Positions 26,527-29,184 of a stretch of DNA of 64,000 nucleotides are shown here, piece by piece. The stretch covers positions 119-64,118 of the forward strand of contig CAZLZE010000006.1 in assembly GCA_964563935.1 (NCBI GenBank), given 5' to 3'. Source of the DNA: an uncultured Phycisphaerae bacterium (lineage in GTDB: Bacteria; Planctomycetota; Phycisphaerae; JAAYCJ01). The position numbers were made by a program, and so were the translations under genes. Below the pieces are notes generated by a model. The model was not told the origin of the DNA. It made no database searches and saw only the letters and a program-made list of their open reading frames with translations. Each line of letters starts with the position of its first letter. Positions within the stretch are counted from its first letter, which is position 1.

Positions 26527-27549
26527 ATGGCCAATGCGGAGATTCAACGACGAAAGCAGCGATGGCTTGACTACTATGAGGGAAAACCGTCAGCCCGTCG
26601 CCTGTTTGTTGTTCGGTTCGAGGATGACAAGGATCCCCGTCCTCCGCTCTGGCCCGGAAAGAAGGCGGAACGTGTCGAATGGGCATGGCGAACGTATCAG
26701 CGGCGGATGGAACAAGTTGAGTGGCTGAAGGACGACCGAATGGTCTTTTTCGAGCTGGCGACCGGAACGGAGATTTTCGCGGAGGCGTTCGGGTGCCGAG
26801 TCCATTATCCGGATGATAATCTGCCGTTTGCCCTGCCGATGATCAACAAGGCGTCCGAAGTACGCAGGATCAAGGTTCCTCACTGGAGTTCCACCCCGCT
26901 CACGCTGCTCTTTGAGATGGCTGATGAACTGCAGCGGCGAGGGGGGAAGGAGGCACTGTTCAGGATTCCGGACATCCAAAGCCCGATGGATATTGCCGCC
27001 CTCATCTGGAACAAGAACGAGTTTTATCTCGGGTTTATCGAAGCCCCGGAAGCGGTTAAGGAGTTGGCGGAGAAGGCCAGGCAGCTTCTGGTGTCGTTTG
27101 TTGACGCCTGGCAGTCCCGATATGGAAGGGAATTTGTCGCCCACTGCCCGGAGAACTATATGCCCCAGGGAATCAGCGTCTCTGAGGACGAAGTGGGAAT
27201 CGTCAATGAGGAGATGTTCCTCGAGTTCTTCCTTCCGGAATTGGTGGAATTGTCGAACCGCTTCGGCGGAATATCAGTGCATTGCTGCGCCGATTCGAGA
27301 CACCAGTGGGCGAACTTCAAAAAGATTCCCAATCTTCGCCTGCTGAATCTGTATCCGCCGGCGCCGATCAAGGAAGCGGTGAGTTGCTTCGCGGAGCACA
27401 CAGCCCAGATGCACGGGTGGAATCTGGAAGGACCCATCTGGACCTGGCCTGGGCAAGTATCCGCGAATGCGCGATGTGTCTTCGATACGAGCGCGAAGAC
27501 CGGGGAAGAAGCGTTGGAGACTCTGGAACGGATCAACGCGTTGTCGTAG
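26527..27549 (+). CDS. Uroporphyrinogen decarboxylase (URO-D)-like family protein (HemE/MtaA superfamily, function unknown)
   Basis: Segment DDRMVFFELATGTEIFAEAFGCRVHYPDD aligns with the conserved DAAILFSDILVxPEAMG substrate-binding region of HemE/MtaA. 340 aa. TIM-barrel-like length. Confidence 0.5.
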   Translation: MANAEIQRRKQRWLDYYEGKPSARRLFVVRFEDDKDPRPPLWPGKKAERVEWAWRTYQRRMEQVEWLKDDRMVFFELATGTEIFAEAFGCRVHYPDDNLPFALPMINKASEVRRIKVPHWSSTPLTLLFEMADELQRRGGKEALFRIPDIQSPMDIAALIWNKNEFYLGFIEAPEAVKELAEKARQLLVSFVDAWQSRYGREFVAHCPENYMPQGISVSEDEVGIVNEEMFLEFFLPELVELSNRFGGISVHCCADSRHQWANFKKIPNLRLLNLYPPAPIKEAVSCFAEHTAQMHGWNLEGPIWTWPGQVSANARCVFDTSAKTGEEALETLERINALS

Positions 27550-28363
27550 TCTTGTTGCGTTTGACCACTATCCCCAGACAACGCCATTTCGCTTCAAACT
27601 CAGGATGTGTCAGTGATAGTTTACCCCACAGGGGATCGCCAACGACCACATGGGTGGGAGTTACGTCAAGCACGGTAACAAAATGGTCGATCATGAACGA
27701 GAACTTCACCAAAGCGATGACTGGGCACAGGTCATTGAGTTCAGAAATTGACCGGAATGAGCGGTATTGACAGGTTACGCCCTGGTCGCCATAGAGAGCC
27801 ATGACCGCCGAAGCCAGCATATCCGGAGCGGTTCCGCAGTCGAAGCCCGTATGTGCCCGTAGGCCGATCTGCCCCTCGTCACCCTTGATTCCCACATATT
27901 GCAGAGCCGTCACCGCCGCTGCTGGACCACAGGTGTAGTCCGTGCTCTGAATACAGACCTTGTTACTGTCGACGAGCGTCTTTATCTGAGACAACTCACG
28001 ACGGGCGATGATGGGATCGACAAACGGGAGTACCGCATAATCGGCTACCGCCATGGTTGTGAAGATTGACAGGAGTATGGATGCCCGGCGGGTCGATAGT
28101 CGCCATGCCAGCGTCATGGTCAGAATCATGGCTGACAGTGCGAACACCATGTACTCGTTTTGTCCGGACATGAGCCAGGAAAAAGGAGGGATAAAGTTCA
28201 GGCAGGCGATGTGTTGAGCTGCTCCGATCATCCCTACCAGAACCAGAGGGAGAATGTACCCGATGAACCAATAGGGCGCCCGCAGCCGGGAGAAGAACAC
28301 ACCGACCCCCGCGCCCACGAGGGCCAGGAAGATGACGCCGATTAGTTCGATCCATGGGTTCAT
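27533..28363 (-). CDS. Membrane protein: 4 TM helices + C-terminal peptidase C39-like (papain-fold Cys/His/Asp) domain, paralog A
   Basis: C39 catalytic-Cys motif TDYTCGPAAAV. His motif IDHFVTVL ~78 aa downstream. Asp (VGDP) 15-16 aa after His, matching the C39 C/H/D spacing. N-terminal hydrophobic helices. Start at 28363 overlaps the upstream stop (ATGA). Confidence 0.7.
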   Translation of the reverse strand: MNPWIELIGVIFLALVGAGVGVFFSRLRAPYWFIGYILPLVLVGMIGAAQHIACLNFIPPFSWLMSGQNEYMVFALSAMILTMTLAWRLSTRRASILLSIFTTMAVADYAVLPFVDPIIARRELSQIKTLVDSNKVCIQSTDYTCGPAAAVTALQYVGIKGDEGQIGLRAHTGFDCGTAPDMLASAVMALYGDQGVTCQYRSFRSISELNDLCPVIALVKFSFMIDHFVTVLDVTPTHVVVGDPLWGKLSLTHPEFEAKWRCLGIVVKRNKTTTTR

Positions 28364-29184
28364 GGTTTCATACTGTCGCTTCGCCTCACGACAATTCCTG
28401 CGTGCCGCCATTTCTTTTGAAACGCGGCATGTGGCCAGACGATCTCGCCGCACAAGGGATCGCCCACGATCACGTCCTGATCCGTCACCTTCAGTATGGT
28501 AATGAAGTGATCCAGCAGCAGCGTATGCCGGATGACCACGACGGCAGGGCAGGATTGTTTCAGTTCGGCGACCGATTTGAACGATCGGTATTCACACCAG
28601 ATGCCTCGATCGCCATAGAGCGTCTGCATGGCCTGGCACAAAGGCTCCGGCGAAGTTCCCCCCGCCGGGCAGGTATGTGCGAGAATGGCGATCTGTCCTT
28701 CGTCCCCCTTGACTCCGAGGCTCCACAGAGCCGTGACCGCCGCCGACGGCCCGCACGTGTACTCCGTATTCTGGATGCATATTCCCTGCTGGATAACCGT
28801 CTTAAGTCGCGATAGCTCGCCTCGGACAAGAAGGGGTTCGAAGAACGGGCGTATGCTGTAGTTTCCCACGAACAGCGACACGAAGACCAGCAGCAGGACC
28901 TTCAGACGCTTTCCCGTGATGTGAGGCACGAGACTCATGACCATCATCACGCCCGACAGGGCGATGACGGCAAACTCCGACCGCCCCCAGGTAACCCAGG
29001 AAAACGGGGGAACGAAGTTCGACTGGTAGAACCATTGGCAGGCCCCGATCATTCCCACCAGGGCGAGCCCGCCCCCGAAACCCACCAGCCAATAGCGTTT
29101 CGGCAGCCGTGATGAAAGGTAACCCAACGCGGCGCCAAGAATCGCCAGAGTGATAACCCCGATTGTCTCAAGCCATGGGCCCAT
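28360..29184 (-). CDS. Membrane protein: 4 TM helices + C-terminal peptidase C39-like domain, paralog B
   Basis: ~50% identical to paralog A over the full length. Motifs TEYTCGPSAAV, LDHFITIL, VGDP. 60-nt gap after the upstream uvrD-like gene on the same strand. Confidence 0.7.
   Translation of the reverse strand: MGPWLETIGVITLAILGAALGYLSSRLPKRYWLVGFGGGLALVGMIGACQWFYQSNFVPPFSWVTWGRSEFAVIALSGVMMVMSLVPHITGKRLKVLLLVFVSLFVGNYSIRPFFEPLLVRGELSRLKTVIQQGICIQNTEYTCGPSAAVTALWSLGVKGDEGQIAILAHTCPAGGTSPEPLCQAMQTLYGDRGIWCEYRSFKSVAELKQSCPAVVVIRHTLLLDHFITILKVTDQDVIVGDPLCGEIVWPHAAFQKKWRHAGIVVRRSDSMKP

Follow-up and report, generated by a model that had tools for sequence, protein, structure and literature searches.

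Tandem four-helix membrane proteins with C-terminal C39-type peptidase domains belong to an uncharacterised, ABC-independent family of Planctomycetota and Verrucomicrobiota

A stretch of 64,000 nucleotides from an uncultured Phycisphaerae bacterium (contig CAZLZE010000006.1 of assembly GCA_964563935.1, positions 119 to 64,118 of the forward strand) was analyzed and is called the window here. Its minus strand carries two overlapping genes, A and B, and each of them encodes a membrane protein with four transmembrane (TM) helices followed by a peptidase domain of the C39 type. C39 peptidases have so far been understood almost entirely as the cytoplasmic front ends of ATP-binding cassette (ABC) exporters for bacteriocins and quorum peptides. 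An earlier note, made from the sequence alone, had drawn attention to the pair. The following features were assigned.

29185..29244, minus strand: spacer of 60 nt between the helicase gene uvrD and gene A, with one sigma-70-like match (GTGACT-18-TATACT at 29248..29219) and TATAAT just downstream

28360..29184, minus strand: gene A, open reading frame (ORF) with ATG start, 274 aa, four TM helices and C-terminal C39 peptidase domain

28828..29184, minus strand: membrane domain of A, residues 1-119, four TM helices (hydropathy, AlphaFold2 model, invariant alignment columns)

28375..28797, minus strand: C39 catalytic domain of A, residues ~130-270 (Pfam, alignments, Foldseek)

28771-28773, 28753-28755, 28507-28509 and 28459-28461, minus strand: catalytic codons of A, for Q138, C144, H226 and D242, respectively

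28360..28363, minus strand: ATGA overlap, formed by the stop codon TGA of A (28362-28360) and the ATG of B (28363-28361), read directly in the sequence

27533..28363, minus strand: gene B, paralogue of A with identical architecture, 276 aa, ATG at 28363

28004..28363, minus strand: membrane domain of B, residues 1-120, four TM helices (hydropathy, alignment with A)

27548..27973, minus strand: C39 catalytic domain of B, residues ~131-272 (Pfam, alignment with A)

27947-27949, 27929-27931, 27683-27685 and 27635-27637, minus strand: catalytic codons of B, for Q139, C145, H227 and D243, respectively

In the mechanical ORF list, B starts further upstream, with a GTG at 28453. The ATG at 28363 was adopted as the start that is consistent with the family. 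Comparison of A with B by BLASTP gave 47% identity over 272 aa (E = 1e-98). The two proteins are thus paralogues as the earlier note had proposed, although its figure of about 50% identity was too high. Upstream of A lies the gene for a 748-aa UvrD/PcrA-type helicase (29245..31491, minus strand) with UvrD-helicase, UvrD_C and PcrA/UvrD tudor domains, and the start of A sits 60 nt past the helicase stop on the same strand. Both this distance and the ATGA overlap were found in the sequence as the note had described them. The overlap is consistent with a translational coupling of A and B. Sigma-70-like matches in the spacer were not more numerous than expected from shuffled sequences; A and B may have a promoter of their own or share a transcript with uvrD.

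To establish the identity of the C-terminal domains, both proteins were compared with Pfam. Peptidase_C39 (PF03412, gathering score 22 bits) matched A with 30.3 bits (E 4e-7, residues 135-269) and B with 33.0 bits (E 6e-8, residues 135-271), and relatives of the family reached 36-82 bits. Peptidase_C39_2 (PF13529) and DUF3335 (PF11814), which the note had named as further candidates, stayed below gathering for B (16.0 versus 24 bits and 14.7 versus 25 bits). The same scan revealed no match of A to either of them. The spacing of the catalytic residues is identical in A and B, with 6 residues from Gln to Cys, 82 from Cys to His and 16 from His to Asp. Of the distances that had been noted before, the one from His to Asp was correct, and the one from Cys to His (about 78) was not. 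Alignment of the family profile to PDB sequences places C144 on the catalytic Cys of PCAT1 and ComA and H226 on their His. The family alignment of 64 sequences shows Q138 and D242 without any variation; 62 of the sequences have C144 and 63 have H226. One exceptional sequence lacks both Cys and His.

The fold is in line with these assignments. An AlphaFold2 model of A (mean predicted local distance difference test score (pLDDT) 88.7, predicted TM-score (pTM) 0.84) contains four long N-terminal helices and then an alpha+beta domain. In a Foldseek search of this model against the PDB, the peptidase domains of PCAT1, LahT150 and ComA lead the list (E 5.5e-8 to 2.5e-6, target TM-score 0.78-0.82). 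Entry 7n87 was matched with E 5.5e-8 and entry 3k8u with a root mean square deviation of 2.1 Å over 139 columns; the best fits lie at ~2-3 Å. Weaker fits were obtained with other papain-like proteins, namely CdiA-CT toxins, PeiR, AvrRpt2, CtaG, AziU2-U3 and one papain-like toxin/immunity pair. Because score, catalytic residues and fold all fit, we assign A and B to C39. They carry genuine C39-type domains with an intact Gln/Cys/His/Asp set, and the description of a tandem 4-TM pair with intact domains was right.

Conservation within the catalytic domain is highest in helix alpha1, which carries the nucleophile (CGPAAAVTAL), and in alpha2 (EGE-AIL); the strands that carry DH and GDP are also among the most conserved elements. 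In LahT150 the helical leader is bound in a groove between alpha1-alpha3 and the sheet, and this groove narrows at the Gly-Gly site (PMC6363468). The conserved alpha1 and alpha2 elements of the family correspond to this groove. That they are so strongly conserved throughout the family speaks for a single, conserved type of substrate.

We searched for relatives with a family profile in 1.84 billion cluster representatives. This search yielded 314 proteins at E<1e-30, nearly all of them 265-290 aa long and matched from end to end. When one genome of each GTDB species was scanned, 345 loci were obtained. Of these, the 80 best are almost all from Planctomycetota (Phycisphaerae, Sedimentisphaerales, Pirellulales, Tepidisphaeraceae) and Verrucomicrobiota, and the others are single loci from Riflebacteria, Poribacteria, Aegiribacteria and deltaproteobacterial metagenome-assembled genomes. 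The same 80 loci served for all neighbourhood counts given below; the family gene was called in 73 of them. Public labels on the relatives read "cysteine peptidase family C39 domain-containing protein", "predicted double-glycine peptidase" or "hypothetical protein". A precomputed PF13529 match is attached to some of the members. Literature searches brought up no publication about the 4TM-C39 architecture or about its distribution in the Planctomycetes-Verrucomicrobia-Chlamydiae (PVC) group. The 4TM-C39 proteins are a distinct, uncharacterised family whose membership in C39 is already present in annotation and for whose architecture these searches gave no published account. The word "undescribed" in the earlier note holds for the literature searched and not for the database labels.

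A neighbour-joining tree groups A with B, each being the nearest relative of the other, on long branches. This indicates an old, lineage-specific duplication. Given this pairing, the idea that A and B are orthologues of two unlinked paralogue lineages that occur in other Planctomycetota was rejected. The tandem arrangement, to which the earlier note had drawn attention, is not characteristic of the family, since two adjacent copies were found in only 3 of 73 loci (L006, L012 and L040). The gene is usually single-copy, and several genomes carry two unlinked copies. Two of the tandem loci have a second copy with only two TM helices (L006 8882-9520, L012 8851-9504). In addition, one single ORF of 604 aa (P0011) comprises two 4TM-C39 units, the first of which is very divergent (21% identity). 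Gln, Cys and His are kept in this ORF and in both two-helix copies. In another database ORF (P0132), a prepilin-type/DUF1559 protein is fused in frame to a 4TM-C39 unit; this fusion may be a frameshift artefact.

A disrupted version of B was observed in a near-identical metagenome contig (L002). There, 10 nt (4140-4149) replace 53 nt of B (window 27939-27991). The replacement covers B residues ~125-142, just ahead of the catalytic Cys145, and leaves B frameshifted into pieces of 136 and 126 aa. A further contig (L005) terminates at exactly this breakpoint. The disruption is either a strain-level inactivation or an assembly breakpoint.

We next asked whether an ABC transporter accompanies the family. 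No ABC ATPase signature (Walker A plus an LSGGQ-like motif) was found in any frame of the 64-kb window, as the earlier note had stated. ABC domains were also not detected in the 15 larger neighbouring window proteins that were scanned, and A and B themselves match only C39 in Pfam. Among the 80 related loci, a pair of Walker A and LSGGQ motifs occurred in one, 6.5 kb off. These data bear on a reading in which A and B are the remnant of a decayed bacteriocin exporter of the peptidase-containing ABC transporter (PCAT) type, or a papain-like pair of toxin and immunity protein. C39 domains usually belong to PCATs, and a decayed exporter would fit with the frameshifted B of the metagenome variant; the CdiA-CT toxins and the toxin/immunity pair in the Foldseek list would fit with a toxin. 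However, an architecture of ~275 aa is kept at full length, together with the catalytic residues, in 314 representatives and 345 species, the C39 domain lies C-terminal to an unrelated 4-TM domain of its own, and Pfam and motif scans revealed no ABC remnants. Because the architecture is conserved at full length and an ABC ATPase is missing in the window and present as a motif in only one of 80 loci, a degraded PCAT fragment, which the earlier note had named as an outcome that would refute it, was rejected. A toxin with its immunity protein is opposed by the homology of A and B to each other and by a PADLOC search without any defence-system match. The housekeeping settings described below speak against both versions, and we regard this reading as essentially refuted.

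The genomic settings of the relatives were then compared. Three arrangements recur.

Planctomycetota, 41 of 73 loci: XseA gene, C39 gene and a convergent gene for a YhaM-like HD/OB exoribonuclease

Planctomycetota, second type, 7-8 loci: NIF3, ScpB and C39 genes in this order, all on the same strand and separated by -4 to 36 nt (20-36 nt in six loci)

Verrucomicrobiota, 6-8 loci: C39 gene followed by a gene for an M3 oligoendopeptidase (TIGR02289) on the same strand

The gene for ProRS (prolyl-tRNA synthetase) is also among these recurrent housekeeping neighbours. The M3 oligoendopeptidase (TIGR02289, 544 bits) was seen in loci L008, L025, L031, L044, L047, L072 and L086 and is the sole same-strand peptidase association observed. 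It has no signal peptide, and where it is immediately adjacent the gap from the C39 gene is 31-111 nt. A DUF885 gene lies upstream in some verrucomicrobial loci. The settings of the family are thus housekeeping settings and not peptide or bacteriocin clusters. A conserved operon partner was rejected, as the recurrent neighbours all belong to housekeeping functions, each occurs in only part of the loci and no substrate is suggested by any of them.

In the window itself, B is met from the other side by a 340-aa gene on the plus strand (26527-27549) with a weak match to URO-D (uroporphyrinogen decarboxylase-like), which converges on B with a 17-nt 3' overlap (27533-27549). A link of the pair to uvrD, to this URO-D-like gene or to an AraC regulator was rejected, because none of them stands beside the family gene in the 80 related loci. 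The adjacency to UvrD, which the earlier note had pointed out, is thus not conserved in the family (0 of 80 loci). Likewise, the radical SAM gene, the HRQ1/MrfA-like helicase and the M17 aminopeptidase of the window do not recur next to relatives in these loci. A regular-expression scan of the window for ORFs with double-glycine (GG) leaders gave only matches inside longer ORFs or without leader-like context.

Hydropathy places hydrophobic helices ahead of the C39 domain at residues ~5-23, 31-51, 70-88 and 96-114, and the AlphaFold2 model of A has helices at 3-25, 33-51, 69-88 and 92-119. The membrane domain is less conserved than the protease domain. A carries two motifs that are conserved in the family, F57-x-P-P-F-S-W in loop 2 and P113-F114-x-x-P117 just after TM4. 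In a 9-sequence alignment of close relatives, the invariant positions of this domain are E6, G35, P59-P60, G67 and P113-F114-x-x-P117. The membrane domain of A and B has no match in Pfam or NCBIfam, and a model of the TM part alone (pLDDT 78) has no structural neighbour in the PDB with E<1.

The orientation of the proteins was derived from the charges of their loops. Averaged over 64 members, Lys plus Arg amount to 0.06 in the N-terminal tail, 2.3 in the 8 residues of loop 1, 1.5 in the 18 residues of loop 2 and 2.8 in the 7 residues of loop 3. According to the positive-inside rule, loops 1 and 3 would be cytoplasmic, which would put the C-terminal domain outside, along with loop 2 and the N-terminus. 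Extended variants point in the same direction. Four of them (P0038, identical to the genome ORF L053, P0050, P0127 and P0132) have a single segment that resembles a signal peptide or an anchor, followed by a soluble domain of >130 aa and by TM1; the extensions of P0050 and P0127 are homologous. Since there is exactly one signal or anchor segment before the soluble domain, TM1 must start outside in these variants. The even number of helices is kept in the two-helix variants, which have a KRK loop, and in the double-unit ORF P0011. The motifs that are best conserved in the membrane domain are predicted to lie on its periplasmic side, beside the protease domain, which begins ~10 residues past TM4. 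Based on the positive-inside rule and the few extended variants, we consider it likely that the C39 domain faces the periplasm. Such an orientation is unusual for C39.

The closest matches of A and B, both in sequence and in structure, are the peptidase domains of PCAT or ABC-transporter maturation and secretion (AMS) proteins (PCAT1, ComA, LahT; PF03412, MEROPS C39). They share the fold, the set of Gln-x5-Cys, His and Asp (82 and 16 apart) and the local motifs CGxA, DH followed by a hydrophobic strand, GDP and F...W. In contrast to these proteins, A and B have no ABC transmembrane domain or ATPase, neither in the same polypeptide nor in an adjacent gene. Their C39 domain is C-terminal (residues 130-270) and not N-terminal, sits on a different 4-TM domain without detectable relatives, is predicted to lie in the periplasm and not in the cytoplasm and is found outside peptide or bacteriocin clusters.

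FapD and FilB are similar to A and B in having a C39 domain without an ABC transporter. FapD, from the functional amyloid system of Pseudomonas, is a periplasmic, Sec-exported C39 peptidase that needs its active-site Cys, has no ABC partner and possibly acts on a non-canonical motif (PMC5557850). It is the closest functional precedent for A and B, and the substrate motif may in both cases be other than a canonical GG leader. FapD, however, is soluble and encoded in the fap operon, whereas A and B are tethered by four TM helices and their family occurs in housekeeping settings. The NCBIfam models for FapD (NF058616) and FilB (NF050078) score far under their cut-offs (20.9 versus 330 bits and 18.3 versus 475 bits), and instead of a fap or fil operon the neighbours of A and B are uvrD, the URO-D-like gene and the AraC regulator. 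Peptidase_C39_2 and DUF3335 proteins are likewise transporter-less, papain-like relatives of C39 with weak matches to B. They have been described as soluble single-domain proteins or GNAT fusions and not as 4-TM fusions; the same survey of papain-like families describes C39 only as fused to transporters and C39_2 as single-domain (PMC10318531).

Taken together, A and B would be ABC-independent, membrane-tethered and periplasm-facing cysteine endopeptidases that clip exported or membrane-anchored proteins near the membrane. This is the reading we favour, and with reasonable but limited confidence. The two paralogues are predicted to be catalytically competent inner-membrane endopeptidases of the C39 type (papain-like, Gln-Cys-His-Asp) that would act without any ABC transporter. 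Their conserved 4-helix membrane domain would serve as an anchor with an N-out/C-out topology, and this topology would put the protease domain on the periplasmic face. Exported or membrane-tethered substrates would be cut close to the membrane surface, probably after a small-residue site (Gly-Gly- or Gly-Ala-like) that follows a helical or anchor segment fitting into the conserved alpha1-alpha3 groove, and the cut would release or mature an envelope protein. A small-residue site is plausible; for a preference specifically for Gly-Gly the chances appear somewhat less than even. The overlap of the genes suggests that A and B are made in equimolar amounts, and they perhaps form a heterodimer. The rare double-unit ORF P0011 gives a faint hint of such an assembly.

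Several observations weigh against this reading. There are 8 cysteines in A and 7 in B, mostly unconserved. Many unconserved cysteines are more typical of cytoplasmic domains. The verrucomicrobial M3 partner without signal peptide would also suit a leader peptidase that faces the cytoplasm. Neither a substrate nor a cleavage motif was identified, and the scan of the window revealed no GG-leader ORF. Finally, acyltransferases share the papain-like fold, with CtaG and AziU2-U3 standing lower in the Foldseek list.

The cysteines and the M3 oligoendopeptidase would be accounted for if A and B were cytoplasm-facing GG-leader peptidases that act in trans, on peptides whose export would then run over an unlinked transporter or over the 4-TM domain of A and B. 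An M3 oligoendopeptidase in the cytoplasm could then degrade the leaders. The active-site motifs Q-x5-C-G, DH, GDP and F...W are those of PCAT peptidase domains, and those transporter-linked C39 domains that have been characterised all lie in the cytoplasm and are specific for GG (PMC6363468, PMC5557850). Yet the distribution of positive charges and the four signal-anchored variants predict the opposite orientation. In addition, the window contains neither a GG-leader ORF nor an ABC gene, the nucleotide-binding motif was present in just one of 80 loci, and the neighbourhoods are of the housekeeping kind and not peptide or bacteriocin clusters. We therefore consider such a leader peptidase unlikely. 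For the same reasons of topology and missing leader ORFs, the "GG-leader-type" processing of the earlier note, in the sense of a PCAT, is doubtful. The role in maturing surface proteins or peptides that the note suggested stays a hypothesis.

The fold similarity to transferases has to be weighed in the same way. Here, A and B would be sortase-like transpeptidases or acyltransferases in which an acyl-enzyme forms at the outer membrane surface of the Cys-His-Asp domain's side and the substrate is passed on to a lipid or cell-wall acceptor. CtaG and AziU2-U3 are transferases, although their fit to the model is far weaker, and the catalytic domain is held near the membrane beside the conserved periplasmic loops of a polytopic domain. 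The latter arrangement is reminiscent of polytopic sorting enzymes. On the other hand, the top matches in sequence and structure are all true C39 endopeptidases, and genes related to an acceptor or to sorting signals were not seen nearby. We infer protease rather than transferase chemistry for A and B, and the transferase reading appears quite improbable.

Some other features of the window were observed. The plus strand at 31815-33476 encodes a radical SAM protein of 553 aa that has a zinc ribbon of the HMPTM type and matches NF045702 "tetraether lipid synthase Tes" with 495.9 bits (cut-off 450). This bacterial Tes homologue is transcribed divergently from uvrD and could be relevant to how this PVC-like organism makes membrane-spanning lipids. 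At 23197-25542 (plus strand), directly after the gene for an M17 leucyl aminopeptidase, lies the gene for an MrfA/HRQ1-like repair helicase, which combines DEAD/Helicase_C domains with the HRQ1 winged helix and the Zn-binding domain of MrfA. Together with uvrD (29245-31491) the region thus holds two repair helicases. At 38795-39487 on the minus strand, a protein with a prepilin-type N-methylation motif and DUF1559 is encoded within a glycoside-hydrolase/LacI cluster; prepilin-type/DUF1559 proteins are typical of Planctomycetes, Verrucomicrobia and Lentisphaerae. At ~34000-36000 the GC skew turns from positive to negative, with a maximum of the cumulative skew. Genes converge around this point, as the main gene strand is plus at 13-27 kb and minus at 34-52 kb. 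The switch could mark a replication-terminus-like region, or simply reflect coding-strand bias.

At present, the result is the recognition, at the level of annotation, of an uncharacterised family, and not a demonstrated new mechanism. To our knowledge FapD is the only transporter-free C39 peptidase that has been studied, and its substrate is not defined. A C39 domain on a membrane module of its own, apparently pointing to the periplasm and present in hundreds of species, implies that the fold is put to another use here, probably a housekeeping one. As a speculation that we hold to be rather unlikely as a whole, the 4TM-C39 family might be an unrecognised envelope-maturation enzyme of the PVC group. 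It would be a periplasm-facing and membrane-embedded "second leader peptidase", or a sortase-like enzyme, possibly an A/B heterodimer, that reads a membrane-anchored helical leader through its periplasmic loops and the groove, cuts a Gly-Gly-type site and releases a conserved set of exported proteins. Envelope biogenesis in the PVC group is poorly understood, and the substrates of the 4TM-C39 proteins could reveal a new protein-processing step.

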